Virus record (IMG/VR): IMGVR_UViG_3300025121_000021
Length of the DNA: 64,000 nucleotides
Direction: 5' to 3' (one strand)
From: an uncultured virus (IMG/VR IMGVR_UViG_3300025121_000021)
Lineage: Duplodnaviria; Heunggongvirae; Uroviricota; Caudoviricetes
Part shown: positions 7,901 through 44,955 of the stretch, one piece after another
Layout: the number at the start of each line of letters is the position of its first letter
Position numbering within the stretch: the stretch's first letter is position 1
Notes under the pieces: generated by a model
Databases searched by the model: none
Seen by the model: only the letters and a program-made list of their open reading frames with translations
Told to the model about the DNA's origin: nothing
Translations under genes and position numbers: made by a program

Positions 7901-8290
7901 TTAAGACATATCTTTTATACAGCGTACAAGATTAAGACGATTTTTATCTTCAGGATGCATAGGATAATTACGAATAATAGTTACGGTCCACACCAAATCA
8001 TCATTATAATAGTATGGAATTGAAGACCAAAAACTCTCTTTTTTCATTATATTAGTAATTCTTTTAGGTCCAGTTTCGAATAAAGTAAATAATTCCAATC
8101 GGGTAGGTAATCTTCCTCCTTGCGCTTCAACCCAATTTTGAGCTTCATACCAAGTCATTTTTTCTTTAGAGACAGGACTCCATATTAATCCAGTTTGAGG
8201 ATCTTTTTGCCAAGTTGCTCTTTTGTATTCTTTTTCTAGATATAACAATTTTGGTTCTTTATAAAACATTATATGTTTATTTTGTTCCAT
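7901..8290 (-). CDS. DUF1566/Lcl C-type-lectin-like protein (paralog 1)
   Basis: DPQTGLIW, MTWYEA, GGRLPTRLEL, FWSS, VRCI. Confidence 0.8.
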   Translation of the reverse strand: MEQNKHIMFYKEPKLLYLEKEYKRATWQKDPQTGLIWSPVSKEKMTWYEAQNWVEAQGGRLPTRLELFTLFETGPKRITNIMKKESFWSSIPYYYNDDLVWTVTIIRNYPMHPEDKNRLNLVRCIKDMS

Positions 8291-9558: not shown

Positions 9559-9810
9559 TTACAGTATTTCTTTTTGTAGTTTTTGAAGTTGATAATAAAA
9601 GTATTGCCATCTAGAAATATTTTTACCACTTAGTAAATATACCCCCCACTCATATACGGCATTTACTGTATATATTTCATTGGCTTTTAAATCACTTTTG
9701 CCATAATGTTTTTCACGGTTAGAAGAACATGAATAAACAGTACTATCTGTTAGTAATACCTTATCTCCTTTTTGGAATAATTTCCGATGATCAATTGTTG
9801 GACTGTTCAT
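9559..9810 (-). CDS. Small SH3/KOW-like protein (FxxGDxV family member)
   Basis: FQKGDKVLLTD; resembles 23846, 25302 and 25545. Confidence 0.5.
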   Translation of the reverse strand: MNSPTIDHRKLFQKGDKVLLTDSTVYSCSSNREKHYGKSDLKANEIYTVNAVYEWGVYLLSGKNISRWQYFYYQLQKLQKEIL

Positions 9811-10160
9811 AGCATCTCCAGTGTAATACCCAACTCTTTTAACATAGATAAGTCAAAAGCTTTTATATACCGTACTGGATAAACAAAACTTTTTACACGA
9901 CTTTGTATTGAATATTCACTAGAACATATACGATACATATAATCTTCACGAAAAAGATCACGCGATGAGGACCAATAATAACATTCTGTAAATCCAGGAA
10001 CTTTATCTATAAATGCTTGTCTTAACTCAAAAATTGTTGGTAACCTCCAGCCATTTTCTTCTGAGTCTTTGGCTTGATTCCAAGTCATTAGTCCTTGGGT
10101 TGGTCCCCAAACCCATCTGTTATTGAAGTCAATTGTAAAACCATTGATTTCTTTAAACAT
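9807..10160 (-). CDS. DUF1566/Lcl-like protein (paralog 2)
   Basis: WGP...MTWNQA...GWRLPTIFEL...YWSSS...VRYI. Confidence 0.75.
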   Translation of the reverse strand: MFKEINGFTIDFNNRWVWGPTQGLMTWNQAKDSEENGWRLPTIFELRQAFIDKVPGFTECYYWSSSRDLFREDYMYRICSSEYSIQSRVKSFVYPVRYIKAFDLSMLKELGITLEML

Positions 10161-10430: not shown

Positions 10431-10808
10431 TTAACGTACACAACGCGCATAGTGATAAAAATCTTTAAGATCGAAGTTGGAGAAACCTCTATTAAAATCA
10501 ATAAGGTAAACACCACTGGGAAGAACATTACAAGATGTTGTTGTCCAAAACTTTTTATTTCTCATTGATTCGATGATTTCTTTAGGTCCATCATCAAATA
10601 GACTAGTAAGTTCTGATCTTGTAGGAAGTTTTCCCCCTTGTTTTTTTGCCCAATCCATGGCTTCGTCCCAAGTCATTGATTTTTCTGCAATTGGTCCCCA
10701 CTCTAATCCGGTCGCAGGATCTTTAATCCAAGTTGTTTCTTTAACAGGTTGATTATGTTCGCATTCTTGACATAGTTCCTGTAGTTTTTCAAGTATTTTA
10801 CAAGTCAT
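10431..10808 (-). CDS. DUF1566/Lcl-like protein (paralog 3, MTCKILE leader)
   Basis: DPATGLEWGP, GGKLPTRSEL, FWTT, YARCVR. Confidence 0.8.
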   Translation of the reverse strand: MTCKILEKLQELCQECEHNQPVKETTWIKDPATGLEWGPIAEKSMTWDEAMDWAKKQGGKLPTRSELTSLFDDGPKEIIESMRNKKFWTTTSCNVLPSGVYLIDFNRGFSNFDLKDFYHYARCVR

Positions 10809-10819
10809 GATTTCTCCTA

Positions 10820-11224
10820 TTAAAGTCGCACACAACGCGCAAAACTTCTATTTGTATAATCCCAATAAATTTTACCTTTACTAAAAAATACATACTCTGA
10901 AAGACCTTTTGTATTAGGATGAGGCAATGATGTCCAAAGATATTTATTTTTCATTCCACTCTTAATTTCTTCTGGACCATTTTCAAACAAATCAATGAGT
11001 TCTACTCTTGTTGGGAGTCTTCCTCCTTGTTCCTCAACCCAATCTTTGGCTTTTTTCCAAGTCGTTCTTTTTTTTAAAATTAGTCCCCATTCTAATCCAG
11101 TTCGAGGATCTTTATACCATTCTTTCATTACAATAATTGGTATTTCTAGATCAACTTCCTGGTCATATCTTTTGCATAGTTTTTCGCATAGTTCTTGGAA
11201 TTCTTGAAGTATTTTGCCTATCAT
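10820..11224 (-). CDS. DUF1566/Lcl-like protein (paralog 4)
   Basis: DPRTGLEWG, GGRLPTRVEL, LWTS, FARCVR. Confidence 0.8.
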   Translation of the reverse strand: MIGKILQEFQELCEKLCKRYDQEVDLEIPIIVMKEWYKDPRTGLEWGLILKKRTTWKKAKDWVEEQGGRLPTRVELIDLFENGPEEIKSGMKNKYLWTSLPHPNTKGLSEYVFFSKGKIYWDYTNRSFARCVRL

Positions 11225-11881: not shown

Positions 11882-11931
11882 TCAACTAGCTCCTTTAAAA
11901 TATATGAATAAGTTTCAAATTTTCAAAAAGA

Positions 11932-12315
11932 CTAAGGCCGCACACAACGCGCGTAGAGGTGGTAAAGTTGATAGTCGTAGAGAACGAGACCGTCGTAAAA
12001 ACTCACGTAAAACGCGTCGTTCGGTCTGAGAACACATGAAGTCACAGACGACCAGAATGTTTTATCTTTCATTGGTTTTTTGATTTCTTCTGATCCGTTT
12101 TTAAATAAATCAAAAAGTTCTATTTGAGTTGGGAGTCGTCCTCCTTGTTTTTTAGCCCAAGCCATAGATTTTTGCCAAGTCATTCGTTCTTTTGCAATTG
12201 GTCCCCACTTTAGTCCAGTCGCAGGATCTTTGATCCAGACTGTTTCTTCAACAGGTTGATTATGTTCACATTCTTGACACAGTTCTTGTAATTTTTCAAG
12301 TATTTTGCAAGTCAT
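11932..12315 (-). CDS. DUF1566/Lcl-like protein (paralog 5), DGR-type variable region at the 3' end
   Basis: MTCKILE leader; NNC-rich tail ending GCGCGTTGTGTGCGGCCTTAG then TCTTTTTGAAAATTTGAAAC. Confidence 0.8.
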   Translation of the reverse strand: MTCKILEKLQELCQECEHNQPVEETVWIKDPATGLKWGPIAKERMTWQKSMAWAKKQGGRLPTQIELFDLFKNGSEEIKKPMKDKTFWSSVTSCVLRPNDAFYVSFYDGLVLYDYQLYHLYARCVRP

Positions 12316-12330
12316 GATTTTTTCCTGTTG

Positions 12331-12612
12331 TTATAGAGGTAATTCTTCTTTAATACTATTATTCTCTTTAAATCCTAAATCATTAAGAGTTTTACGGATT
12401 TGATCTGCTGACCCATCCATCCAATAGGTATTACCAGTAAGGATGGTTTCATCGAAAATATTTTCGAGTAAGAAGATTTCATCTTCATCAAGATCATCAA
12501 GTAAATCAAAAGATAGATCGAATGTATCTTTTCTAACAATGGTGACTGTATACCCTTGTCTATTCTCTGCCTCAAAATTGTCTAAGCAATAATAGAAATC
12601 TGAATATTTCAT
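12331..12612 (-). CDS. Acidic hypothetical protein (FYY family member)
   Basis: MKYSDFYYCLD...; start at ATG 12612 behind an AGAGG SD. Confidence 0.5.
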   Translation of the reverse strand: MKYSDFYYCLDNFEAENRQGYTVTIVRKDTFDLSFDLLDDLDEDEIFLLENIFDETILTGNTYWMDGSADQIRKTLNDLGFKENNSIKEELPL

Positions 12613-12987
12613 AGTTCCTCTCTTAAGAGATTGATTTTCGTTATTGTTTAATTTATTTTTTTCATTTTTCAATAGATATAAAATATGTTCTTGAGAAACT
12701 TTAATGTTTACGAAGATTTTTGACAAGAAATTTAATCCACTTATGCACAATGAAAGGAAAGCACATAGGCCACAATAAAGATAATAGTAACAAAACACAC
12801 GAAAGTTCTTCATATGGTTCTGTTCCTTTTAGTTCGTATAAAAAATATAAATGGCCAAATCTATATATAACAATTCCTATAAAGATTGTTAACAACCATA
12901 AATACAATGGAATTTCTGGAGCATTAAACATTAATATAAATGCCATGCCCACAAACCAAATAACATTGATTAATTTATATAGAATAT

Positions 12988-13257
12988 TCATTCGGCTATT
13001 CTTAATAAAATTAGATACCCAATTAAATCTAATAGAGTATCTTCATTGTCTTCGGTTTGATTTAATATTCGACTTAGTTTATCATCGATTCTGACCTTTA
13101 ATTGTTCTATTTTGTCGGCTTTTGAAAATATACGAACAGGATCAAAGGCAGCGTTTCCATATTTCTTATTTTTCTCAATTAGTAACTCAAGAACTCTTTC
13201 TAACACAAGTTTAACTTTTTCTATAGTTTCATTGTGTTCGTCTCTGAAAATTGCCAT
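12988..13257 (-). CDS. DUF1599 / nucleotide-modification-associated domain protein
   Basis: KNKKYGN...VRIDDKLSR...DTLLDLIGY. Confidence 0.7.
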   Translation of the reverse strand: MAIFRDEHNETIEKVKLVLERVLELLIEKNKKYGNAAFDPVRIFSKADKIEQLKVRIDDKLSRILNQTEDNEDTLLDLIGYLILLRIAE

Positions 13258-13544
13258 TAGTAGATAACCTCATCTAGGTTAATTTCTTTTGGAGTCTCTA
13301 CATATTGAGTTTTACGGAGTGGGTTTCCTACGGATTTTGTTGTAATATTTGCGGCACATTGTTTACAAAACAAGCCCTCTTTATTTACTTCGTGTCCTTT
13401 AGTAACCTTAAGAGTTTCGTATGTCTCTTTATCTTTTACTGTATACTCTACAAGACGAATTTCTGTAATAAGTTTTTCGGGTGTATCATGAATAACATGA
13501 TTACATTTTTCACAACGGAAACACATACTTTTTCCCTCCCAGGA

Positions 13545-13871
13545 TTAGTATTTTACGCAGATTACATTACCAATTCCACTTTTAATAATATTATTAACGT
13601 TTTCGTATAATAATCCTATTTGATTAGTTCCTAATATTTCAGGTTCATTAGGAAGTGACCAAAAATATTTACCTTTCATACGGAGTTGAATTTCTTTCGG
13701 TCCAAATTGAAATAAGTTAAAGAGTTCTATCTGTTTAGGGAGTCGTCCTCCTTGCTTTTCAGCCCAATCCATGGCCTCTTTCCATTTCATTAATTTGTCT
13801 GCGATTGGTCCCCATTTTATTCCAGTTTTATAATCTTCATCCCATCCCCGATAATCATTTTCTTGAATCAT
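13545..13871 (-). CDS. DUF1566/Lcl-like protein (paralog 6)
   Basis: DYKTGIKWGP, GGRLPKQIEL, FWS, VICVK; start at MIQEND. Confidence 0.75.
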   Translation of the reverse strand: MIQENDYRGWDEDYKTGIKWGPIADKLMKWKEAMDWAEKQGGRLPKQIELFNLFQFGPKEIQLRMKGKYFWSLPNEPEILGTNQIGLLYENVNNIIKSGIGNVICVKY

Positions 13872-13872
13872 T

Positions 13873-14253
13873 TTAATCTCCACATATGCAACGTACACGA
13901 TAAAGGTTATCTTTGTTATCATAGTATAAATGATTAAGATAAAAATTTGCAGCCCAAACACTATCGCTATCACCTACATGAGATGATGACCAATAACGAT
14001 TATCTCCCATTCGTTTTTGAGTCTCTTCAGTTTGGTTATTGATTAGTTCAAGGAGTTCTACCCTTGTTGGAAGTCTTCCTTTTTGTTTTTCACACCATTT
14101 TACAGCTTCATCCCAAGTCATTTCTTTCTTAGAAATTGGTCCCCATTTTAACGTAGAAATGGGTATCTTGATTTGGTTTACTTCTTTAACAGGTTGTTTA
14201 TATTCACATTCTTGACATAATCCTTGTAGTGTTTCAAGTATTTTGCAAGTCAT
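13873..14253 (-). CDS. DUF1566/Lcl-like protein (paralog 7, MTCKILE leader)
   Basis: WGP, GRLPTRVEL, YWSSS, VWAANF, VRCI. Confidence 0.8.
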   Translation of the reverse strand: MTCKILETLQGLCQECEYKQPVKEVNQIKIPISTLKWGPISKKEMTWDEAVKWCEKQKGRLPTRVELLELINNQTEETQKRMGDNRYWSSSHVGDSDSVWAANFYLNHLYYDNKDNLYRVRCICGD

Positions 14254-14864
14254 AAAGTTCCCTTTATTGGAAATAGTTAATAATGTAATAAGAAGTAATA
14301 AAAATAATTATTGATATATAAAAACATAAGTAAATAGTTCCTATCATATATACTTGAATAGTTCCATGAAAGCACGAATTAAAATTATAGTTGGAATAAT
14401 TAATAATAGGTAAGGAATTGTATATATGATTATTAATATTATTATTGAAAGGACTATTAACCCTAATAAACCTATATGTATTTTCATTGTTTTTTATTAA
14501 ATTGTTTTATGGAAATCATATTCTAAAGGAATAGTTTCCCAATTTAAGACTTTTTTATAATAGCTATTAAAGTCTTTACAAGGGTCTTTTGCATTATCAT
14601 CAAAGTAAGAATTAATAGCATAAAGTAAACTAGGATATTTATTATAAAGATGTTGATAAGTTTTTGTTAGTGTCATCCCTTTCTCAACTAATTCTTGAGC
14701 TTTTTGCGCTCTTCCAAGCGCTATTTTTGTTCCTAATTTCTTTGAAAATTGATCTGGTTTTGTGTTTTTATTACCCGAATGAGATGCGGCCCATCCAATA
14801 ATTCCATTATTTAAAATGACACAAGTTAAGTAGTTTTTATAATAAAATACTTTATATGGTGTAT

Positions 14865-15311
14865 TCATATTGCTTCTCCTATGGATGTGGGTATAGGCCA
14901 AGATAATGGCCAATTCATGAGTAGTTCATCTAAATTATTAGATTGTCGAACAAGAGTATGACGAGGAACAGTATGAACATTTCGGGCAAGAGCAGCTTCT
15001 ACACTTATACCAAAGTAACAGAAATTAACTTGATAATTTGCTTTTATTGCGGCATTATAATAAGGTTCAATTGCCCATTTAGTTAGATTTGTATTATCTA
15101 TGATAATAGTTTCTGCTTTAGCAAATAATGCTAAATGAAATTTATTTTGACAAGCTTTATGAGCTTGTTCAAGTTTTGTTGGATCCCAATTATATGTCCC
15201 ATCTTTTTCAAAGAAGTGATCTGCAGAACATATTACTGCATTGGGAAAATTTTTAGCGTAAGTACTTTTACCCGAACCAGATATACCAATGAAAATATTT
15301 ACAGTTTTCAT
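14865..15311 (-). CDS. P-loop kinase (AAA_33 / polynucleotide-kinase-like)
   Basis: GISGSGKST Walker A, CSADHFF, IIDNTN, RNVHTVP. Confidence 0.8.
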   Translation of the reverse strand: MKTVNIFIGISGSGKSTYAKNFPNAVICSADHFFEKDGTYNWDPTKLEQAHKACQNKFHLALFAKAETIIIDNTNLTKWAIEPYYNAAIKANYQVNFCYFGISVEAALARNVHTVPRHTLVRQSNNLDELLMNWPLSWPIPTSIGEAI

Positions 15312-15345
15312 GGCGTTAAACTCCAACTTTAAATTTTCAAAAAGA

Positions 15346-15726
15346 CTAAGGCCGTACACAACGCACCGCGTAGTCACGTATTTTATCGTTGTTGTTAGTA
15401 TCACTATAGTTAAAGTTTACATACCATGCATTATAGACGTAATAGAAGCAAGATAACAAGGACCAGAATTTATTTGATTTCATTGGTTTAACAATATTTT
15501 TTGGTCCAAAATCAAATAGTTGGAGAAGTTCTGCTCTTGTTGGAAGTCTTCCGCCTTGTTTTTCAGCCCAGTCCATGGCTTCTTCCCAAGCCATTGGTTT
15601 TTCAGCAATTGGTCCCCATTCCAGTCCTGTTTTAGGATCTTTTTGCCAGATGACTTCTTTAACAGGTTGATTAGATTCACATTCTTGACATAATTCTTGT
15701 AGTTTTTCAAGTATTTTGTAAGTCAT
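15346..15726 (-). CDS. DUF1566/Lcl-like protein (paralog 8), drifted variable region
   Basis: MTYKILE leader; AWYVNF...VRCVRP; followed by TCTTTTTGAAAATTT. Confidence 0.8.
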   Translation of the reverse strand: MTYKILEKLQELCQECESNQPVKEVIWQKDPKTGLEWGPIAEKPMAWEEAMDWAEKQGGRLPTRAELLQLFDFGPKNIVKPMKSNKFWSLLSCFYYVYNAWYVNFNYSDTNNNDKIRDYAVRCVRP

Positions 15727-15752
15727 GGTTTTCCTCTTGATTAATTAATTAT

Positions 15753-15991
15753 TTAGTTGTTTTCAAATACAATCTTTTCTTGTACTTTTGTACCGTCAAA
15801 ATAACACAGATTTCTTTTTGCTTCTTCTAGGGAAGAGAAAGTATTTTTGGATCGGGGATCTAATGATATGAAGGAATCATAGGACGACGCGTCATCCCAC
15901 CACGACCACGCAAACAGATTAATCTGCGTTGGATGACATATGTAACGCTGCCGTATATGCTCGTTCTTTCGACAATGCGAACTTTCTTCAT
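15753..15991 (-). pseudogene. Small gene with an apparent 1-nt deletion near 15925
   Basis: MKKVRIVERTSIYGSVTYVIQ continues in another frame as QINLFAWSWWDDA...LEEAKRNLCYFDG...; span 239 nt. Confidence 0.45.
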
Positions 15992-16005
15992 TTTTTTTCT
16001 CTTGA

Positions 16006-16079
16006 TGGTCCCACTAGGATTTGAACCTAGACTCTCTGCTTATAAGGCAGAATAGCTAACCAATTACTACTATGGGACC
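16006..16079 (-). tRNA. tRNA-Ile(UAU), no encoded CCA
   Basis: GGTCCCA/TGGGACC acceptor, TCTGC-CTTATAA-GCAGA anticodon arm, CTAGG-TTCAAAT-CCTAG T arm. Confidence 0.8.
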
Positions 16080-16385
16080 CTGTTTAAAATTATTAATAAT
16101 ATTAGAATTGAATTTCTTTTTTATAATGGATAATGCCATTTTGACACAAATAACCTAATTGATATGAAGGAATTATAGGATGAAATTTTTCCTTAGATAT
16201 ATATTTGCAATGATTTTTTATCAAGAATTCTTCCGTAATATAAGAATTTGTTTCATGATAAAAATTAGATTTCATTTTAATTTCAAAACCAACAAGTAAA
16301 ATTACAAAAATTATAGCAATGATACCTGCTACTTTTACAATTTTAGTTTGATTTATTTTTAACTCATTTTAGATTTTAAAAAGGA

Positions 16386-16453
16386 TGACCATCGGTGGAA
16401 CTGCCCCATCCCTTCCTACGTACCATGTAGGGCTCTCTCTTGAGCTGATGGTC
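16386..16453 (-). tRNA. Atypical tRNA-Thr(GGU)-like element
   Basis: GACCATC/GATGGTC acceptor, GCTC/GAGC D stem, CCTAC-ATGGTAC-GTAGG; T arm non-canonical. Confidence 0.45.
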
Positions 16454-16463
16454 TTTTGAAGAG

Positions 16464-16530
16464 TGGAGCCGTTGGAATCGAACCAACCTCCGTTCATGAC
16501 CGTAGCCAAAAACGTCTCCCAGAGTGCCCC
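16464..16530 (-). ncRNA. Minimal tmRNA tRNA-like-domain-like RNA
   Basis: GGGGC.../GCTCC-A acceptor with G3-U70, canonical T arm, no D stem, anticodon arm replaced by a 10-bp helix capped by C(UACG)G. Confidence 0.5.
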
Positions 16531-16623
16531 ATAAAATTAGTATGTAGCCCCTTCCGCGCTCATACTATATATCCTCTAGCTTTTTGAGTCAAAAGCCAAG
16601 GGTATTTACCTATGTAAGAAAGT

Positions 16624-16752
16624 TTATTCTTTGTGGAGATGTTCTTTGATATGTCCGCATGTTCGACTAGCGGCATCTAAGCCTAAAATGCCGACAATAG
16701 TCCCCAAGGCAGTAACTCCGATCCAGATTAGAGTATCTACGGCCCATTGCAT
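16624..16752 (-). CDS. 42-aa membrane peptide, paralog of 28334..28525
   Basis: MQWAVDTLIWIGVTALGTIVGILGL vs MQFILDSIIWLVITALGTFLGLLGF; AAGGAG SD; too short for the ORF track. Confidence 0.6.
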   Translation of the reverse strand: MQWAVDTLIWIGVTALGTIVGILGLDAASRTCGHIKEHLHKE

Positions 16753-16766
16753 ATGTACTCCTTGAT

Positions 16767-17363
16767 TTAACCCTCTAGCAGAGGAAGGCGAGCATCATTA
16801 GTCGCTAAACCAAGACTGGTTTCGTTTGGATACTCAAGGCTTTGGAGATACTTGTCCAAGTCTTTTCCGTCCTTGGCATTGGCAAGATTGTAAATTTTTA
16901 CCCCTGCTTTCTTAGCCAGACGGCAAAGTTGCGCAGTGTCACCAGTAGGATCTTTCTCGAAACAAGTGATCATAAAAGAACTAGGATCGTTCAAGTTGTC
17001 TCCAAGAATCATGTAGCTAGTGCGTGCCATGATCTTGCGAGTCGGCGTTTTGAGATGAGACCAGTTGATTTCGACATTGTTGCCTTCTTCATTGACACCA
17101 AGTCGATACCAATTTTGCTCTGCAATACAGTAGGCTTGACGGCTAATCCTATTGTGTTGACTGGGATGGTTATTGAAGTTTGTCCAAGGCAAATATACGC
17201 TACACCTAAAGCCCGCTCCTTCTTCAAAGGCTTTCGAGACATTCGTTTCTCCACCAAGTCGAGCAATAAATCCCAACTTAGAGAGACGTTTGGCAAACGC
17301 CGTAAAACGGTCCAAATTTTCTTGACTCACTTCCCGATCTGCTGAACCAGTGTAAAAACGCAT
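16767..17363 (-). CDS. SLOG/DprA-like Rossmann-fold protein (divergent paralog of 27452..27955)
   Basis: YTGSADRE...AFEEGA...YLPW...ILGDNLNDPSSFMI...IYNLA. Confidence 0.65.
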   Translation of the reverse strand: MRFYTGSADREVSQENLDRFTAFAKRLSKLGFIARLGGETNVSKAFEEGAGFRCSVYLPWTNFNNHPSQHNRISRQAYCIAEQNWYRLGVNEEGNNVEINWSHLKTPTRKIMARTSYMILGDNLNDPSSFMITCFEKDPTGDTAQLCRLAKKAGVKIYNLANAKDGKDLDKYLQSLEYPNETSLGLATNDARLPLLEG

Positions 17364-17440
17364 GGCTTACCTCCTCAGGTAGCTTTTTAAACAACACAAA
17401 GCATTAAATCTTTGTGTCAATACTTGAATTTTCAAAAAGA

Positions 17441-17761
17441 TCACGGCCGCACACAACGCGCGTCGTAGTCGTTATCCTTATTGTCGAGGCCGACGTAGCC
17501 GTAGTCGAAATTCACGTACCACGCGAAGACGGAGTTGTAGACGTAGGACGACGACGACCAGAATAGACCTCTCAATCCCTCCAGCCCCGGAGCTGTCTTC
17601 CCGGTTTCCCTATCAATGGCATTCATTAATTCATTGACTCCCGGAAGATACCAGTCGTCAAAGCCAAGGTGCTTCTCTGCGTTGAGCTTGGTTGGAAGGT
17701 TTATTGCCTCTTGCCAAGTGCATTGAAATTGTTTACTAATTTTGTTGGTATAGTCTTTCAT
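17441..17761 (-). CDS. DUF1566/Lcl-like protein (paralog 9), DGR target with a fresh variable region
   Basis: LGFDDWYLPGVNEL; tail FWSSSSYVYNSVFAWYVNFDYGYVGLDNKDNDYDARCVRP in NNC/NNT codons. Confidence 0.85.
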   Translation of the reverse strand: MKDYTNKISKQFQCTWQEAINLPTKLNAEKHLGFDDWYLPGVNELMNAIDRETGKTAPGLEGLRGLFWSSSSYVYNSVFAWYVNFDYGYVGLDNKDNDYDARCVRP

Positions 17762-17762
17762 A

Positions 17763-18071
17763 TTAGATATAACCTCCTGAAATGAAAGCTGTATAATCTG
17801 AATTAGTTTGGAAACCTTCTTGGTCTAACGCTATTCTTACCTGGTTAATATCAAAAGGATCCCAAAATACTTTATCAAAGCTATAACAAAATTCCATTTC
17901 TTTAACAAGTCCAATACTTTCAAAATATTTAAATTCTTGAAATGTTTCCTCGCTTTTACAATAACGATATTTATTCCAGAATTTAACCGGACAAATATTT
18001 ATTGTAAACATTCCAGGGTTATCAGGATCATCAAGAAAAACATAATAAAAATCTGAACCTGTAGTTTTCAT
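17763..18071 (-). CDS. Hypothetical protein (FYY family member)
   Basis: GSDFYYVFLDD...; similar to 12331 and 11573. Confidence 0.5.
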   Translation of the reverse strand: MKTTGSDFYYVFLDDPDNPGMFTINICPVKFWNKYRYCKSEETFQEFKYFESIGLVKEMEFCYSFDKVFWDPFDINQVRIALDQEGFQTNSDYTAFISGGYI

Positions 18072-19104
18072 ATTAATCCTTACACAGGAATATTATTTAT
18101 GGTATTTTTTGTCAATTCTTCTTTTACCATTTGCTCTATTTCTAGATTGAAGCTTTTAACTGTAATTTCAAATGCTTCGTCAAAATCAGGATTTTGTAAT
18201 TTTTCTTTAATTTCTTTCCATGTCATATTTTTGTACGCCAAACAACATAGAAAGGCATAAGTATTTATTAGCGTAAGTAGTCTTTGTTCAATTGAATTAG
18301 GATCATTTCTATTATCTAGTGCGAGAGAAGCAGCCATGTGTTTTGCATCAAGAATCATTTTTTGTACTTCTTCGTTATTTTTAAAAATAAGCATATTTGC
18401 TCCTTATTGATGAAAGCGTTTTTGATAGTCTTTTCCATATTTGCAAAGTTCAACAATATATTCTTCTGTCAACAAATCACGAACTTCTTTCTCGAAGTCT
18501 ACATTGTCAATGTTTGCGAGTATAACGGCTTTGATAAATCCTTTGATAAGACCACGGATAAGAAATGGGAAAGGTACTGTCATCCATAACGGATGTTGAG
18601 ATGTCCAAGTAGAAAACGCAGCACTAATTGTTTGAGAGAGGCTTTCTTCAACTAAAGTATACATATAATCCTCCTCGGATTATTGGCCTAAGCCTGCTTC
18701 ATATTGCAATACATAATCTAAGGCATGTTGAAGATCTGCATCATTGAAGTTAAGATTGTTTAGTTTAGTTTTTAAATCATCAGGAACGAAGACCCATCCA
18801 GGTCTACTTTGTAAATATTCAATATAATTTTTGTCCATTTTTTGTGCAACATTATCTTTCATAGCTAGAAAAAGTCTTGACGCACAAACCCATTTTGTTT
18901 TTAGATTGTCTTGTAACCTAGCAAAAGTTCCTGGTTGCCAAGAATCAATGAAATTTTTATTTTTTAGTAAATTTTTGCACAAAGATTTTTTGTCAAGATT
19001 TATATCGAGATTAAGATTATAACAATCTAATACATATTTATCTTTATTATAAAGAGTGCATGTAATCATGATTCTCTCCAAGTTTCAAATTTTCAAACTG
19101 ATCA

Positions 19105-19412
19105 CTACCGCACACAACGCGCGTAGAGGTAGTTAACCTTAAAGTCGTAGTTGACGAAGCCGTAGCCGAAACCCACGTACCACGCGTAGTCGGTGTCGTT
19201 GACGTGGGACGACGACGACCAGAAATTCTTATCGCGCATGGGCCAACTATTTCCTCCGGCCACTCGTCACAGAGTTGTACCAGTTCCCACCGTTTGGCTA
19301 CACGTCCTCCTTGCTTTTTTGCCCACTCCTGAGCCTCGTTCCATGTCATTCTTTTCTCAGAGATTGGTCCCCATTCTTTTCCGGTTTCCATATCTTTGAT
19401 CCACTTGCTCAT
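19105..19412 (-). pseudogene. DUF1566/Lcl-like DGR target (paralog 10) with a 1-nt frameshift just upstream of the variable region
   Basis: MSKWIKDMETGKEWGP...EIVG then, one base shifted, MRDKNFWSSSSHVNDTDYAWYVGFGYGFVNYDFKVNYLYARCVR; span 308 nt. Confidence 0.75.
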
Positions 19413-19885
19413 GGCGCGGTCCTCTTGGTTATATCGATTTCGTCGCGCAGTTTGTTGATCTTGTGAGCAATGTCGTTGATAGAACAAACAAGGTCCAAGG
19501 CAATATTGATTCCAATCGAATCAATAAGCTCATCCAACAAACCCTGATAGTGTCCCAACAGGTACGCCTGGTTTGACGATGTTTTTACGTCGTAATTGTA
19601 ACGCCAATTGTGTCCTCCACTTTTCCTGCACCTCATGTATTCGTTGAGTCTCTCGCTCATGGAGCAGTCCTCCTGGCCTGATTTAGCTTTTTCAGAAGAA
19701 AGCCTATACATCCAAAGATGTCAAACTTGTTTATTTCTATTGGATTTTTATGCCACCTTCCGATCCAATAGCTATTCTTTTTTAGGATTCTTGGCCACTC
19801 GTCAGGGCCAATGATGATGTGCCAAATTATGATACGAATGTTGACGAAATCGCCACTCATGGCTCCTCCCAGGTATCAAGACCGA

Positions 19886-20194
19886 TCACGGCCGCACACA
19901 ACGCGCGTAGTTGTAGCTATCCTTACTGACGTAGTCGACGAGGCCGTAGTTGAAATTCATGAACCACGCGCAGCCGGTGTGGCCACCGTCGTATGAGGAC
20001 CAGAATATTTTCCCCTTCATTGTTACTTTAATCTCTTCTAGGCCTTCATGAAAGAGGTAACACAACTCCCAAGGTTTAGCCTGCTTTCCACCCAGTTCCT
20101 TACACCAGGCTTCTGCCTCATCCCAGGTCATCCTTTCTTTAGATTCAGGTCCCCATTCTAATCCGGTTTTAGGATCTTTCTGCCAGATTGTCAT
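19886..20194 (-). CDS. DUF1566/Lcl-like protein (paralog 11), DGR target with a fresh variable region
   Basis: WQKDPKTGLEWGP; tail AWFMNFNYGLVDYVSKDSYNYARCVRP. Confidence 0.85.
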   Translation of the reverse strand: MTIWQKDPKTGLEWGPESKERMTWDEAEAWCKELGGKQAKPWELCYLFHEGLEEIKVTMKGKIFWSSYDGGHTGCAWFMNFNYGLVDYVSKDSYNYARCVRP

Positions 20195-20609
20195 AAGTTT
20201 TCCTCATTGTTTTGACTATGTGTTGGTTAGGTATGATATTAGGATTCCGTTCTTTGAAAACTGAGTATTCCTCTCCGTGAAGATCATTAAGAAATGTTCC
20301 GACTGCTCCAGAACGAGAAATTCCAGCAGCACAATGTATGACAAAATTTTCTGTCTCATGTCCTTTAACAAAATCTAAGATTTGTTTGGCATGTTCTTCT
20401 TGAAAAAGAATATACTCAGGATGTTCCGGAACAGTTTCATCAATATCGAAGAACACTAGAGAAAGTATTCTTATATTTTGTGCGAGAGTTTTTATTACTT
20501 CGGCTTCTTCTAATGTATCATTGATAGAAATGATATTAATATTAGGACGAAATTCTTGTTTTTCAAGTATCTCTTTTACGAAAGTTCTTGGGAATATCCA
20601 AATCTTCAT
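20169..20609 (-). CDS. Protein tyrosine/dual-specificity phosphatase-like protein
   Basis: HCAAGISRSGAV (CX5R); start at MKIWIF. Confidence 0.8.
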   Translation of the reverse strand: MKIWIFPRTFVKEILEKQEFRPNINIISINDTLEEAEVIKTLAQNIRILSLVFFDIDETVPEHPEYILFQEEHAKQILDFVKGHETENFVIHCAAGISRSGAVGTFLNDLHGEEYSVFKERNPNIIPNQHIVKTMRKTYDNLAERS

Positions 20610-23600
20610 GATTCTTCTTCTCCATCGCTCGTTCTTTTCCGCATTGCTTCGCTTGTGCTTAATTATGGCGCAGTCCTCCTGATGTCGGTGGCGGCGAGCT
20701 TGTCCGGGCCGATGCTTCCGTCTGGCTGGAGGTAGCCTGGTTTGCAATTTTCAACCAAACAAGATGAGCAGGGCATGAGGTCACCTAATGTACACCCGTT
20801 GTCACACTCGTCTTCATTGTACAACCCACCGAAGTTGTTGGTGGTCAGATGTTGGAGTGTTATTCCTTTGACGTTCATGTTGGCTCCCTCTGGATTGTCC
20901 GGGCCGATCTTGCCGTCGGGCTGGAGATAACCGTATTCGCAACCTAACATGAAAGCACATCTCTCCATCGCCGTGCAGGAACACACTACTTCCTGTGTTT
21001 CTCTCGCCATCCTGTAGAGCCCGTGGTATCCGTTCGCGTCGCGGTGTTGCCGTGCGGCGTCGATCACGTACATGCTATCTCCTTGGATTACTTGTTTCTT
21101 GGTACAGTTTCACGGCATCGTCGGCGACTTGTGCCTCCTTGGCTTGTTTGATCTTGCGGTACACTGTTACCGCGTTGTCGGCGGTTTCCCAGGAGATGTC
21201 TCCCCCGTTGTACCGCAGTGTTTCAATGAACGCCGCCGCCCATATCAGCCGCTCCATGTCGATGGATGTGGTTGTGGGCCTTTGGTTTTCCTTGAAGTCA
21301 TCGATAATATTTTCAGTAAAGCTCATTTCGCCTCCTTGTCTTGTTTATCTTCTTCTTCATTTTCTTCTCTTTCTTGTATCGCATAGAGAATTGCTTCTCG
21401 AATAGTCTTTTTCCATTGTTCTTTTTCAATAATGAAAGTCGTAACAAGGTCACTTGGAACTTCCATGGGACATTCTTGGAAACCAGAAGAAGAAATAGCC
21501 CAATGTCCTCTGTCGTCAGAGATAAGAGCATAGCCTTCTTGATCTTCTAACCAATTAATCAATTCACTATCAGTATAAGTATTCATGGTTTTTCCTCAAG
21601 GTTAAACTTAATTTTTTTCATGTGTCTTATAATATTGATAATAGAGAGGAAGAACTTGCTGTATAAATTCACTTGGGAGAACAATATTCCATAAAAGTTT
21701 ATAAACACTTGAAATAGCAGACGGACCGCGTATTTCTCCTGAAGTCAGCATGTCCATTATTTCTTTATAGGCCATATAATGTTTATCATAAAAAGTTACA
21801 GAAGTTTTTTCCTTCCAATATGGGCCTTCGTTTTCTGGAAATCTTTGTTCTTTAAGTGTTACTTGAAAGTAAGACCCTTGATTCCAATAACCGAATTCAA
21901 AAACTAATTGTTGTTGATCTACATAATATTTAGGTTCTTGTCGTGGAGGAGCAACATCTGAAGATAAGTCTTGTATGAACTGAATACTTAATCTCATAAT
22001 TTACTTCTATTATAAAAGGTTGTTTCTTTTGTCATAAACTTTTATTTTTCCCAGCCTACATTTTTACTGGCTTGGACATGATCACATGTCCGTTTTTTTT
22101 CTACTATTACTTTACTGTAATACTTGCCAGTTTCACCTTGAAACCAAGGATCACCGGCTGGTGCAAATCTCCATTTATATAATAATTCTTCATACGAAGC
22201 ATTTCAATCCGTTGTTTTTGTTGCTCTGTCATATTTCCTCCATAGAAACAAGAGAGTTGATAAAGCCTATATATCCCTTGTCTGAAAAGGTCTGCTTTAT
22301 ATATTGATACCTTTTATTGTAAGCCAAATAATATCTGCCATCAGAACTACATTGTTTAAGAAGTCTAAGAATAATGTCAAATTTAGTTTCAAGCAGGCCA
22401 AACTGATCCTTGCTGATTGCCTTTGCTTCTTCTTCGAATTCATCAAATAAGTCCAAAATAGCTTGTTCATAGCCACATTCATTGCACATATTAGCCTCTA
22501 TTTTTCTCTTTAATTTCATTAAGAAGTTCTACAATTGTATCCGCCTCACTTTTTTTACGTGGAGGTGGTGGAGGTGGAGGAGGTGGCTTTGGAAAAGATG
22601 GCGGTGGATTTATCCGATACCCTTTATAAAAAGATTTTGGGAGAGTATAAAGTAAACATATATAAATAAAAAAGATTGAGACACCAATAAACATGATTGT
22701 TAAAAAACATGAAAACATAATTTCTCCTAAAAGTTAAGTTTATTTTTATTTCCTTTTTCTTAGCATCTCCAAATGGTATTTATTGCATAAATTATTGTGC
22801 CGCAAATTATTCCAGTTATAGCAATCCACATGCGAAGTTTATCTTCACTTTGATGTAAAAGACGAAAACGCTATAAGCAGCATAATAAATATAGTTAAAA
22901 ATGCTAGTGCTTCGCTACATCCCATAATTTTCTCTTTTATACCTGAATTTTGAAATTCTTCTTTAAAAGCTTTTCGTTCTCCTAAATATATAATTATAAG
23001 GACAAGTAAAATAGGAATTATGGAACACCAAAAACACATAGTTTCTCCTAGAATTTATCCCCAAAGGGTGTTTATTGTATAAATTATTGTGCCACAAATC
23101 ATTCCCGTTATAGCAATCCACATACGAAGTTTATCTTCACTTTCCATATTTCTCCTTTTAAGTAAGGAAATATTCCTAGTTATCTAAAACAATACGATGA
23201 TTTACTTGTACAAGTTTAAATTCTATAACTTCAAGAATAAATAAAGGCTTAGTTAGGCGCAAACATCGTTGAGTATATTCATTATTCAAACAATGTTTAG
23301 CCCGTCTTTCAACTACAGCAAGTTTTGTTGAAGGAATATAGGTCATGTAATCTGAAGGATTACGTGCATGGTCGTTATACCATAAATTAACTTCGGGAAA
23401 CCAAATGCCATAGACATTTTCAGTTTGCATATCGTTTTAACTCTCTTTTATTTTATTAGAGATATCTATAAGTTTAATTTTTTAAAGCGCAAATACTTGT
23501 TTTATTAACTTCACTGAAAAATCATTTTTACAATTAAAGAGTATAGATAAATAAGTAACTATTGTTTTATCAAAAATAATTTCATATTTGATTTCTTCTT

Positions 23601-23845
23601 TAATGTTGTTATCTACAACGTATTTAGATACTTCTTGTCTTAAAATCTTTGCAATTTTTTTATATACATTATCAGTAGGGATTTTATATTCAAGGTCTTT
23701 TAGTAAAAATTCTATCTTCATAATTTCTCCTAAAAGTTGAATTTATTTTTTTATTAAAAATTATCTTAAGCAGTAAGAAATATAATAAGAAAAACTAAAA
23801 CAACACATATTATGATGTATGAAAAGATACACATGTTTTTCACCT

Positions 23846-24109
23846 TTATAAGGTTTCAATTTCTAGTTGTTCAAAATGTATAAGTTGACTATTATGATAC
23901 CAATATCCCCATTCACTAATTCGATACCAATTCGGTATGTGATGGGACTCTCTTATATAGCTTATTCTTGGCTCTAGTTTTTCACAACGCGGTTGGAAAA
24001 GAGTGTGTTCAGGTATTCTATTTCCACGATTTTCATCTTTTAATACGTATATATAAGGATCTAGTAAAAGAACTTTATCTCCTATTTCAAATTTAGTTTC
24101 TTGAGACAT
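23846..24109 (-). CDS. Small SH3/KOW-like protein (FxxGDxV family)
   Basis: FEIGDKVLLLD...YHNSQL...EIETL; AGGAG SD. Confidence 0.5.
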   Translation of the reverse strand: MSQETKFEIGDKVLLLDPYIYVLKDENRGNRIPEHTLFQPRCEKLEPRISYIRESHHIPNWYRISEWGYWYHNSQLIHFEQLEIETL

Positions 24110-24943
24110 ATCTCTCCTTAAAACGATAAAGTCTCCCTTCTCTCTCCTGACCACTCTCATCCCTCTAAAGGATAAAAATGCGCACAAAATGTTATTATTG
24201 TTGATTTTATTGAGGAGAGAAGAAAGGAAGAAATGATTTATTTGAGAGGATGATCCCATAGTTGATCAAACTCTGGTCTCCATCCTCGGGGAGTTGTTCT
24301 GCAATGTAAATGAATGACGATGTCTTTACTTACTGTATGATAACAACGATGCCCTTTAAGATAAGGGCGTGAAAAAGAACCCTTAGAATTCATTTTGAAT
24401 TTTGTTGCAGTATCTATATTGGAAACAATTAATGGATTTCTTTTAAGCATACATTTTAAGTATGAATCTCGATCGTCAAGAAATGCGCAACTAGCGCTTC
24501 TATTAAGATTAAATGATCTCCCTTGCCCCATTAATGAAATTGTAATCAGATTATTACTCATTGTATGAATTTCATGAACGAGTAATCGTTCTTTATAATG
24601 AGTAAGAAATCTCTTACATTCTATATGGTTACCCTTTACAACAAAGGGTTGAGAATTTTTAGAAAAGCAAATATAAATATGCGGAGCATCGAATATTCCT
24701 TTTTTAAGAGGAAATTCGGCCAGTACTTTATATTGAGGATAATTTTTTCTTTTAGTTTCTTCTTTTAAGACTTGATGGTATAGATTTTTTTGTTTTTGAA
24801 TAAGCATAGTTACTCCAAGAAAATGGGTCAGATGGAGCTTCAGTATGCAGTATTAATCGAAGCCCACCCAACCCGTTATGGAATCTTGCCTTCAGTATTT
24901 TATAAATATATTAGCGAAGGCAGTATTTCCTTTTTTTTGAAGA

Positions 24944-25014
24944 CGGCATCACTAAGATTCATACTTAGATCTTCTGGTAGACACCAGAGGCTCTCTCCTT
25001 TGAGCTATGATGCC
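24944..25014 (-). tRNA. Degenerate tRNA-like element (anticodon undetermined)
   Basis: GGCATCA/TGATGCC acceptor, D arm, 6-nt anticodon loop, aberrant T loop; copy of 25125..25199. Confidence 0.4.
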
Positions 25015-25022
25015 ATTTTTTA

Positions 25023-25102
25023 TGCCCGAAGTCGGGTTTGAACCGATAGGCTCATTAGCCAGGATATTTTAACCCTGGAGATACCATTCCTCCCATTCGG
25101 GC
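25023..25102 (-). tRNA. Degenerate tRNA-Leu(UAA)-like copy
   Basis: Same acceptor and similar T arm to 25215..25297; anticodon loop expanded. Confidence 0.5.
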
Positions 25103-25124
25103 TACTTTTTTTTTAAGAAAAAGA

Positions 25125-25199
25125 CGGCATCACTAGGATTCGAACCTAGATTTTCAACAGCATAAGGGCCGGACGTTCTCCCTTTTAAACTATGATGCC
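25125..25199 (-). tRNA. tRNA-like element with an irregular anticodon arm
   Basis: GGCATCA acceptor and perfect CTAGG-TTCGAAT-CCTAG T arm; anticodon arm does not pair canonically. Confidence 0.45.
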
Positions 25200-25214
25200 C
25201 TAATTTTTATGTAA

Positions 25215-25297
25215 TGCCCGAAGTCGGACTTGAACCGACACGACCTATTGGTCAGAAGATTTTAAGTCTTCCGGGTATACCATTCCCCCATTCGGGC
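25215..25297 (-). tRNA. tRNA-Leu(UAA), no encoded CCA
   Basis: GAAGA-CTTAAAA-TCTTC, long variable arm GACC-AATA-GGTC, canonical T arm. Confidence 0.9.
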
Positions 25298-25301
25298 TAC
25301 T

Positions 25302-25538
25302 TTATAAGGTTATAGTTTCCATTTCATTAAGAAGTTTAAATTGACTTCTATGATAATAAGCTGGACTACCATTTAACATAACCCAATCAGGGTATTTTTC
25401 GTAACAACTCATTACAGTATATATTTGATAAGGTTTTAAGGCTCCTTCTCCGTAGGATCTTCCTCGCTTTGTAAGAGTCACACGATAAATATTTCTATTT
25501 GTAAGAAATACTTGGTCTCCAATTTTAAATTGCGGCAT
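25302..25538 (-). CDS. Small SH3/KOW-like protein (FxxGDxV family)
   Basis: FKIGDQVFLT...YHRSQF...METITL. Confidence 0.5.
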   Translation of the reverse strand: MPQFKIGDQVFLTNRNIYRVTLTKRGRSYGEGALKPYQIYTVMSCYEKYPDWVMLNGSPAYYHRSQFKLLNEMETITL

Positions 25539-25544
25539 ATAACC

Positions 25545-25793
25545 TCATAGAATTATAACTTCTATTTCTGTGATAGGAATGAATTGACTAACGTGAATCC
25601 AATATGTGTTTCTGTTCAATCGATACCAATGTAGAAAGTCTAAATTTTCACCGGTTTGTGTTATTGTATATTTTTGCTGATTTTTTAGATAATCTTTTAT
25701 AATTAGTGTCCCTTTGACTTCATCTGTATTCATGAGATAGACGTTACCATCGGTTAAGAATACTTCATCTCCGATTTTGAATTGTTGGCGCAT
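25545..25793 (-). CDS. Small SH3/KOW-like protein (FxxGDxV family)
   Basis: MRQQFKIGDEVFLTD...IHVSQF...IEVIIL; start moved downstream because the longer ORF overlaps tRNA-His. Confidence 0.55.
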   Translation of the reverse strand: MRQQFKIGDEVFLTDGNVYLMNTDEVKGTLIIKDYLKNQQKYTITQTGENLDFLHWYRLNRNTYWIHVSQFIPITEIEVIIL

Positions 25794-25829
25794 ATCATTC
25801 TCCCAATCGAAGATGTTTTGTTTAATTAA

Positions 25830-25902
25830 TGTGACCGGTGGGAATCGAACCCACATCTTTGGGACCACAACCCAAAATTCTAGCCGTTGAACTACGGTCA
25901 CC
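25830..25902 (-). tRNA. tRNA-His(GUG) with G-1, no encoded CCA
   Basis: TTGGG-TTGTGGT-CCCAA; GTGACCG/CGGTCAC acceptor; canonical T arm. Confidence 0.9.
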
Positions 25903-25911
25903 ATCTATAAA

Positions 25912-26195
25912 AGTAGTTATCAGGTGTGCTATTACGCCAAAGGCCAGTCTACCATTAGTAGGTTAACACCCCAAATTGTCAGTTTAACTACCTACTTAAA
26001 CATCCTGACAATCCCATTTTCATGGCTTGAGTCATCTGTTCCGTCGAACAGACGAGCAGTACGCATACAAGCTCAGGTCTTGTTTTTATTCACTGACGCG
26101 CCAGCAAGCTGCCGAACTCTTAAACGCCTTTGCAATGTTAAGGGGCCACTCTTTAAAAGATGGCTGCTTCTAAGCCCACTTCCCGGATAACCACT
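25912..26195 (-). ncRNA. Structured ncRNA containing a split copy of the 23S rRNA uL11-binding/GTPase-associated centre
   Basis: GGCTTAGAAGCAGCCATCTTTTAAAGAGT...[~210 nt]...GCGTAATAGCACAC, closed by a 10-bp terminal stem AGTGGTTATC/GATAACTACT. Confidence 0.75.
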
Positions 26196-26223
26196 ATTTT
26201 TTAGTTTCAAATTTTCAAAAAAA

Positions 26224-26604
26224 TCACGGCCACACACAACGCGCGTAGAAGTCGATAGTCTTATTGTCGTAGCGGACGTAGCCGTAGTTGAAATTCACGT
26301 CCCATGCGTAGTCGGTGTAGCCGACGAGGAACGACGACGACCAGAATATCTTTGGATACATTGATATAATAATATTTTTCAAATTAGAATCAAAGAGTTG
26401 AATGAGTTCACCTCTTTCGGGAAGTCTCCCTCCTTGTTCTTTTGCCCAATCCATGGCTTCTTGCCAAGCCATTGGTTTTTCAGCAATTGGTCCCCATTTC
26501 AGTCCTGTTTTAGGATCTTTTTGCCAAGTTGTTTCTTTAACCGGTTGATTGTGTTCGCATTCTTGACATAGTTCCTGTAGTTTTTCAAGTATTTTACAAG
26601 TCAT
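26224..26604 (-). CDS. DUF1566/Lcl-like protein (paralog 12, MTCKILE leader), DGR target with a fresh variable region
   Basis: Tail FWSSSFLVGYTDYAWDVNFNYGYVRYDNKTIDFYARCVWP, then TTTTTGAAAATTTGAAAC. Confidence 0.85.
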   Translation of the reverse strand: MTCKILEKLQELCQECEHNQPVKETTWQKDPKTGLKWGPIAEKPMAWQEAMDWAKEQGGRLPERGELIQLFDSNLKNIIISMYPKIFWSSSFLVGYTDYAWDVNFNYGYVRYDNKTIDFYARCVWP

Positions 26605-44558: not shown

Positions 44559-44580
44559 ATTTCCTCCATAAAGAGGGTTG

Positions 44581-44955
44581 ACTTCTGGCCCCGAACCATT
44601 AGGTACCCAGAAGTTTGGGCATCTTGTGCCCGCCGGGGTTATGGACTCCCGGCAGCCTCGTGATTCTGGCTCACGTCGCCCTGTTTCGGATTCTCCACCG
44701 CTCATCATGAGGGAGAAATCCGCAACCACTCCTCCTTGAGTGGAGATATATGAGACGATTTTTTCTTCGGGGTTCGTCTCAAGCCCCTATTTTTCACCAG
44801 GAAGAGGGGGTAAGACCTAAGATGAGTGACTAGACGGTCTCACTCACCCTCCCTTCCCGGTGAAAACGTGGGGTTACTCTCATGCCTCTCCGGTAGCGCC
44901 CCAAAACTTCCGGAGAGAGGGGGGTGGGCATCGAACGCCGATGTTTCTCACCCTC
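44581..44955. other. GC-rich array of about ten hairpins upstream of the polyprotein gene
   Basis: Examples: ACTTCTGG/CCAGAAGT, GGGCA/TGCCC, GCCGGG/CCCGGC, CCACTC/GAGTGG, TGAGACGA/TCGTCTCA, TTTTCACC/GGTGAAAA, TGAGTGA/TCACTCA, CTCTCCGG/CCGGAGAG, CATCG/CGATG. Confidence 0.7.

Follow-up and report, generated by a model that had tools for sequence, protein, structure and literature searches.

The window analysed in this study is a stretch of 64,000 nucleotides from an uncultured virus of the Caudoviricetes (IMG/VR record IMGVR_UViG_3300025121_000021, hereafter G000; positions 213-64212, minus strand). Between 7.9 and 26.6 kb of the window lies a set of small genes, all encoded on the minus strand, 12 of which belong to one family of Lcl_C proteins (PF07603, formerly DUF1566), with nine window proteins above the 34.9-bit cut-off and three below it. 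A profile built from the window copies matched 22 open reading frame (ORF) pieces in the whole phage, corresponding to about 20 genes, all on one strand. Three body types can be distinguished: family A (roughly 126 aa, starting with an N-terminal helix), a shorter type that lacks this helix (genes 19105 and 19886, named here by their first window position), and a third type that runs about 20 aa beyond the lectin domain and is represented, with one exception, outside the window. Five of the small genes (17441, 19105, 19886, 26224 and, less cleanly, 11932) end in a common GC-rich 3' block of 114-120 nt. These blocks are very probably the variable regions of a diversity-generating retroelement (DGR), and neither a template nor a DGR-type reverse transcriptase (RT) was found in the two available records of the phage genome.

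Gene 17441 (17441..17761) encodes a 106-aa Lcl_C protein (PF07603, 3e-19) with its variable region at approximately 17447-17563 (117 nt) and a G+C content of 0.57 in the tail and 0.45 in the body. Its N-terminal part is unlike that of the other paralogues of the phage and is similar to two foreign proteins, P0007 and P0008 (55-56% identical when aligned; 58% and 54% by BLASTP). Gene 19105 (19105..19487), also Lcl_C, carries its variable region at about 19108-19224 and ends one codon early (TAG). It is split in the window and in a second genome record, G001, by a 1-nt deletion near 19238, and its 52-aa tail ORF (19105-19263) matches PF07603 at 1.4e-8. The gene is one open frame in the metagenome contig L084, which has one extra base (ORF 642-1025, 127 aa, TTG start); the frame near 19238 is intact in contig C687J39217_1000241. 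Gene 19886 (19886..20194; 102 aa; PF07603, 4.9e-9) has a variable region at about 19892-20005 (114 nt, one codon shorter on the 5' side) with a tail G+C of 0.57, and fits the gapped pattern of the 3' half. Gene 26224 (26224..26604) encodes a 126-aa family-A Lcl_C protein (PF07603, 8e-14) with a variable region at about 26230-26346, where the G+C content rises from 0.36 in the body to 0.55 in the tail. Gene 11932 (11932..12315; 127 aa, family A, Lcl_C; PF07603, 2e-9) ends in an older, partly worn variable region at about 11938-12057, with a tail G+C of 0.50.

The blocks, all of which were checked on the minus strand, stand out from their surroundings in composition and in the way they vary. A 19-mer from the block end occurs in five copies in the window at up to three mismatches and in none of 100 shuffles, and the last 120 nt of the five genes have a G+C content of 0.50-0.57, compared with 0.36-0.48 in their own bodies, 0.26-0.38 in four other paralogue tails and about 35% in the whole genome. 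Among the equal-length blocks of 17441, 19105 and 26224, 87 of 117 columns are identical, and the 30 variable columns are distributed 15, 14 and 1 over codon positions 1, 2 and 3, so that 29 of 30 fall at positions 1-2. When 19886 is added over the last 84 nt, 27 columns vary, with a distribution of 13, 13 and 1. Pairs of the equal-length blocks differ at 0-1 of 39 third positions, whereas the bodies of related paralogues in family A differ at 19-33 of 86, and 17441 and 19105 show no difference at all over these 39 positions despite an AT-rich genome; both also retain all 87 invariant columns. Adenine occupies just 7 of 83 never-varying columns. Three variable columns are unlike template adenines, and these are due to 26224 alone, one of them changing the conserved RCVR to RCVW. 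Overall, the comparison, which involves variable regions only and no template, found the arrangement expected of a DGR variable region, with variation at the positions that a template adenine would give and a scaffold that is otherwise identical.

A different origin was weighed, in which ordinary diversifying selection acts on paralogues while gene conversion keeps the scaffold alike. The family is large, recombination between paralogues is plausible, and the allele mosaics described below would fit short conversion tracts. However, gene conversion would copy the variable columns too, and selection does not account for agreement at 38-39 of 39 third positions in genes with bodies that are either unrelated or divergent at 22-38% of such sites. 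Gene 17441, for example, has the same scaffold as 26224 although its body is unrelated to that of 26224. The GC-rich block and the scarcity of adenine in the invariant columns would also be left unexplained, and we regard this origin as highly improbable. For these reasons the blocks are taken as DGR variable regions, very probably written from one template, and a single template would appear to have served all five.

These measurements bear directly on the first-pass annotation, which was made from the letters of the window and had described the 3' ends of 17441, 19105, 19886 and 26224 as aligning codon by codon with near-invariant third positions. This alignment is borne out, and the two columns that it quoted (GGC/AAC/GAC/CGC and AAT/TTT/AGT/AAT) are present as given. 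Its view of the blocks as variable regions of one A-rich template agrees with the distribution of variable columns, and the targets are indeed several small stand-alone DUF1566/Lcl_C proteins, at 102-127 aa within the claimed range of about 100-130 aa. Its count of 15-19 variable NNC or NNT codons was too low, since 23 of 39 codons have a variable position; such codons do dominate (third letter C in 17 and T in three), but three end in G. The description of at least four fresh regions likewise holds in part. It suits 17441 and 19105 at their third positions, but 26224 contributes the three non-adenine-like columns, 19105 is frameshifted, and the fifth region, 11932, is clearly worn.

The replaced stretch begins with the codons TTC TGG, which open the protein motif FWSSS, and reaches slightly beyond the stop codon, and in fresh copies the 3' block is common through the stop codon. 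In 26224 the family's usual end CCT TAG is swapped for CCG TGA, and this swap, together with a GC-rich stretch inside an AT-rich family-A body, looks like the conversion of a gene that was already present. Most of the approximately 20 paralogues have AT-drifted tails, and their wear is graded, with 87, 74, 67, 63, 61, 54 and so on down to about 45 of the 87 invariant columns kept; gene 11932 retains 61 in an ungapped scan and gene 15346 retains 54. Within the window, seven minus-strand paralogues (7901-8290, 9807-10160, 10431-10808, 10820-11224, 13545-13922, 13873-14253 and 15346-15726) have AT-rich, pattern-less tails (G+C 0.25-0.38) and were recognised by PF07603 matches, three of them below the cut-off, and by the profile search, on which the membership of 13545, with no Pfam match, depends. 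The upstream neighbours of 17441 and 11932 were compared as a possible partner family, and their similarity was not significant. Outside the window, a 99-aa paralogue (L073:543-842, G001 119343-119642) has a tail G+C of 0.50 on a different scaffold and could be what is left of another type of variable region.

A 16-nt AT-rich motif begins 4-7 nt after the stop codon on the minus strand, at 11912..11927 with further copies at 19082-19097 and 26204-26219. These three are its only exact occurrences in the 190-kb genome, each directly after a variable-region gene, and worn copies follow 15346 and 17441; the motif may serve as a target-recognition element. No GC-rich stem-loop of the kind known from Bordetella phage BPP-1 was seen at the 3' ends of the variable regions, and RNAalifold returned just two 5-pair stems (-6.8 kcal/mol). 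At the protein level, an AlphaFold2 model of 26224 based on 23 aligned sequences (mean predicted local distance difference test score 87.2, predicted template-modelling score 0.73) gave six Foldseek matches against the PDB at E <= 0.001, which comprise C-type lectin domains, the Legionella Lcl C-terminal domain 8q4e_A (E 6.7e-4) and Bdellovibrio Bd2740 (8oks). Judged from this model and the Pfam matches, the targets have a C-type lectin fold of the Lcl_C/DUF1566 kind, and the variable region of 26224 (residues 87-125) forms the C-terminal strands. No hydrophobic leader is obvious by eye in the five proteins, and our guess is that they are diversified binders acting inside the infected cell. 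The suggestion in the first-pass annotation that such intracellular binders are, for example, anti-defence or host-takeover proteins is speculative.

Variation within the population was investigated by locating window positions 16500-21500 in sequencing runs, where 13 groundwater or soil runs from seven studies hold this part, and by comparing the Logan contigs, rather than reads, of the four runs with the lowest shares (X9, X11, X12 and X13). The parts around 17411-17957 that lack cover in X11 and X12 were not used as evidence. Of 40 rows of differences, 21 form the biggest cluster, which spans 17473-17534 and coincides with the variable region of 17441. Run X13 holds two alleles of this region, neither of them that of the window, while X9 holds the window's allele and one other, and the three rebuilt non-window alleles depart from the window's sequence at 14, 2 and 5 of its 117 positions. 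Sorted by codon position, the 21 differences divide into 14, 4 and 3, so that 18 of 21 fall at positions 1-2. Moreover, 12 of the 21 lie within the 34 columns in which paralogues also vary (binomial p = 0.007), and a further three are first positions of NNC codons. Eight listed X13 contigs, all outside the 17441 region, show 0 differences in 3,967 nt. The first-pass annotation had named a lack of enrichment of read variation at the predicted A positions as a result that would speak against it; the 17441 region points the other way in two of the four runs, in contigs rather than reads, and the other four regions show no variant. We also observed that one X9 contig omits 17424-18080 (655 nt), carries 21 other letters instead, and thereby loses 17441 together with its upstream gene; the cassette with the polymorphic region itself would accordingly be present in some genomes and absent in others. 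Single-base length differences from other assemblies occur at window positions 19238 and 15921.

The second record, G001, is 190,284 bp long and includes G000:129-125446 at 100% identity, and G000:1-127 equals the first 127 bases of G001. G000 therefore spans from the end of G001 over one extra base into its start, and the genome appears closed at 190,285 bp. The phage genome is probably closed at this length (~190.3 kb), though IMG/VR calls it linear. It is nevertheless conceivable that a donor in cis was missed, either because the genome is not truly closed or because the cassette sits in a strain-variable island absent from the consensus. Closure depends on the 127-nt overlap, CheckV estimates completeness at 84% for G001 and 59% for G000, and strain gene content does vary, as the X9 contig lacking 17441 illustrates; the short overlap and the estimate for G001 also count against placing the donor outside the genome. 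The CheckV figure of 84% is regarded as unreliable for a phage so distant from any reference, since its terminase is only 32% identical to that of the nearest GenBank phage, Moorella phage MTATph1. Both ends of G001 are bridged by G000 with one extra base, the longest contigs with the same proteins in other assemblies (190,340 and 190,104 bp) fit one fixed genome size, and the source metagenomes included in the pattern scans gave variable regions only. A missed cassette in cis is for these reasons considered unlikely.

Within G000 and G001, a scan for the invariant columns recovered variable regions and worn paralogues only, with at most 16 of 30 variable columns as A, and a BLAST search of the genome with a constructed stand-in template returned the same set. 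Each of the two records contains a single RVT_1 match, a 261-aa protein that is best matched by retron RT models (NF038233 at 1e-27, PADLOC RT_II-A at 5e-28, and RT_III-A). Outside the window there are 70 ORFs with a length of 170 aa or more; a Pfam scan of 66 of them revealed no further RT, and the other four straddle locus borders. The accessory protein Avd (PF05635) was unmatched in G001 at E values up to 10, HRDC not having been searched, and some DGRs lack avd according to a passage of Wu et al. 2017 (PMC5758913). The first-pass annotation had noted that neither template nor RT lies in the window, and this statement can now be extended to the whole phage, with no template, no Avd and one retron-type RT. 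It had also named the lack of an A-rich template in phage or host as the result that would speak against it; for the phage genome, this was indeed the outcome. The retron-type RT itself (motif C = YVDN; G000:66527-69961, locus L009; about 117.7-126 kb in G001) is unlinked to the variable regions, lies between a PRTRC-like ThiF/JAB/E2 set and a PrkA-SpoVR-DUF444 trio, and has about 280 nt of non-coding DNA upstream.

Searches for related loci beyond this phage returned little. A 15-mer from the 3' end gave 56 loci in IMG/VR, of which four (G001) are variable regions and 52 are chance matches. A shorter central pattern gave one foreign match in IMG/VR, at L100 3960-4080 (IMGVR_UViG_3300045131_001460), which was rejected as an unrelated DUF1566-type tail; it resembles a variable region on a different scaffold, and its 31-kb contig is without RT. 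A search of GTDB genomes with gene 17441 led to three Capnocytophaga loci that matched over 17-22 residues only and were uninformative, and a search with a six-sequence alignment returned G001 alone. Word-based protein searches gave five matches each, mostly the phage's own paralogues, with P0002 and P0007-P0010 as foreign matches, while tblastn of gene 17441 against GenBank phages gave none.

Taken together, these results lead us to favour, tentatively, a donor that lies outside this genome and has been active recently over the recent loss of a cassette. In such a mechanism, mutagenised cDNA made on a single AAC-rich template some 120 nt long would have replaced the 3' ends of at least five paralogous lectin-fold genes. 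The donor, comprising template and DGR-type RT and not encoded by this phage, would persist elsewhere, whether in the host, in a co-resident element or in a sibling strain, and would act in trans on phage DNA that carries acceptor sites only. A deletion of the cassette would arise in one genome with one allele, whereas four alleles of the 17441 region were found in otherwise identical backgrounds, which suggests that the donor is still in the community and that it may still be active in trans.

A number of observations weigh against such a donor. Gapped patterns with N at the variable columns retrieved G001 only from IMG/VR. From 241 million JGI metagenome records, including three assemblies with this phage, a gapped pattern retrieved eight loci on three contigs, all of them variable regions of this phage. 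The gapped pattern had no match in 185,579 GTDB genomes, nor did BLAST give one against GenBank phages or PLSDB plasmids. For window 16500-21500, a share of at least 0.99 of the sampled words is present in 8 of the 13 runs. Two other JGI contigs agree with the window throughout the regions of 17441, 19105, 19886 and 26224, save for a single N at window position 19206, where a variable codon of the 19105 region has its first letter; the other 14 Ns of these contigs lie elsewhere, along with two single-base insertions. The 26224 region is identical in its four cluster members and the 11932 region is unchanged in contigs of X9, X11 and X13, so that polymorphism is limited to 17441 and four of the five regions (11932, 19105, 19886 and 26224) have no variant. 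Furthermore, the 17441 alleles come from low-depth (3-4x) Logan contigs, they are mosaics with window codons at both ends of the region rather than rewrites of the whole region, and three of their 21 differences are C-to-T changes at third positions. Gene 19105 carries a frameshift, drift has begun in 26224, and two clusters of differences (18443-18463 and 19299-19352) lie outside the variable regions, although we suspect that these reflect contigs of paralogues or relatives placed at 80% likeness.

The recent loss of the phage's own DGR cassette would accommodate much of this. The regions would then be frozen relics in which decay is starting, and the variation in 17441 would be left-over polymorphism reshuffled by recombination. 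The graded wear over about 20 paralogues fits a long association in cis from which targets dropped out singly, and the fixation of four regions across samples, the lesions in 19105 and 26224, and the mosaic alleles with their third-position changes are all in keeping with it. The failure to find the template in any scanned collection, including the source metagenomes, also suggests loss, and RT-less DGR fragments have been described as possible fossils in a passage of Paul et al. 2015 (PMC4372165). Against this stand the complete identity of 17441 and 19105 at third positions despite the AT-rich genome and the coexistence of four or more alleles of the 17441 region although the X13 backgrounds show no other difference, which under a relic view would need recombination with strains that carry the donor. 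We consider the loss of a cassette a genuine possibility, albeit one to which we give less weight than to an external and recently active donor.

Comparison with known systems places the targets in a familiar class and sets their genomic context apart. According to passages of the survey by Wu et al. 2017 (PMC5758913), targets of the DUF1566 type account for 14% of DGRs, and roughly half of these targets are short, domain-only proteins, like the phage targets here. The DUF1566/DUF823/Fib_succ_major class ('category d', CLec2), which includes Legionella LdtA, shares with our genes a C-terminal variable region in an Lcl_C fold that ends in ...ARCVR, with NNC codons varying at positions 1-2. The class differs in that a template and an RT encoded alongside led to the discovery of its targets, whereas this phage genome has neither, and LdtA is a surface lipoprotein, while the phage proteins have no leader that is obvious by eye. 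The same survey text describes a Treponema denticola DGR with seven non-adjacent targets, which resembles the present case in having one template and several dispersed targets with a common 3' end. Those remote targets are cellular and lie on the chromosome of the donor, whereas the present targets are carried by a phage and their donor either lies elsewhere or has been lost, and remote targets are described there as not expected for phage DGRs. Bordetella phage BPP-1, with its target Mtd, shares the adenine-specific rewriting of a C-terminal lectin-fold region. It differs in having one target, a tail-fibre protein that adjoins avd-TR-brt (TR, template repeat), and a GC-rich stem-loop after the initiation-of-mutagenic-homing site, whereas the present phage showed no more than a weak AT-rich motif and, within the end of the coding sequence, a 5-pair stem.

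The BPP-1 donor works in trans from a separate plasmid, as stated in passages of PMC5758913 and PMC12875486, which makes such action feasible, and a 2026 reconstitution in E. coli placed donor and target on separate plasmids according to the portion of PMC12875486 drawn on here. RT-less DGR fragments in Nanoarchaeota, as presented in part of Paul et al. 2015 (PMC4372165), have a history of adenine mutagenesis and were read as fossils or remotely served sites; these lack an RT gene in incomplete cellular genomes, while here both template and RT are absent from an apparently complete phage genome. A full-text literature search found no report of a phage with variable regions but without template or RT, and the supplementary tables of surveys could hold one. 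A more specific version, in which a host, co-resident or hyperparasitic template-RT unit rewrites several non-structural phage genes during infection and the phage provides acceptor sites only, is put forward as a doubtful, speculative proposal.

Several other features of the genome deserve mention in their own right. Just downstream of 26224, the stretch 26146-26190 (minus strand) presumably resembles the L11-binding region of 23S rRNA (the GTPase-associated centre). Rfam gave no match at 26146-26190, many contigs diverge at 26147 and 26150 into rRNA-like sequence, and run depth in the last two bins reaches 32-155 in three of the four runs (11-19 in X12) compared with 0-13 elsewhere; the stretch may be an rRNA mimic or a captured fragment. 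A single open frame of 3,317 aa occupies 34776-44729 (minus strand) within an island of high G+C (0.48-0.55, the genome as a whole having about 0.35), with Pfam matches to a bacterial DNA-binding (HU-type) domain, DUF1653, a poly(A) polymerase/CCA-adding head domain and an HD domain. ARAGORN called tRNAs for Ile-TAT (two), Leu-TAA, His and Lys in a cluster at 24942-25297 and at 16006, 25830 and 31032, plus two with odd anticodon loops of 2 and 4 bases. An actin-like phage protein is encoded at L070:9009-10049 (G001 68409-69449; Pfam Volactin, 1.8e-46).

Surveys of DGRs begin from the reverse transcriptase and are consequently blind to targets whose donor resides in another genome. If genes of this phage are indeed rewritten by a donor that it does not encode, DGRs would act across genome boundaries and current counts of DGR targets would be too low, and if the template and RT form a unit encoded elsewhere, genomes would share the capacity for hypermutation, or steal it from one another. 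The phage would further be an example in which diversification affects a family of about 20 small, non-structural proteins with a lectin fold and not a tail fibre, which points to a variable binder that works inside the cell. Should the cassette simply have been lost, the locus would offer a dated series of variable regions at every stage of decay, useful for measuring how fast DGR scaffolds erode.

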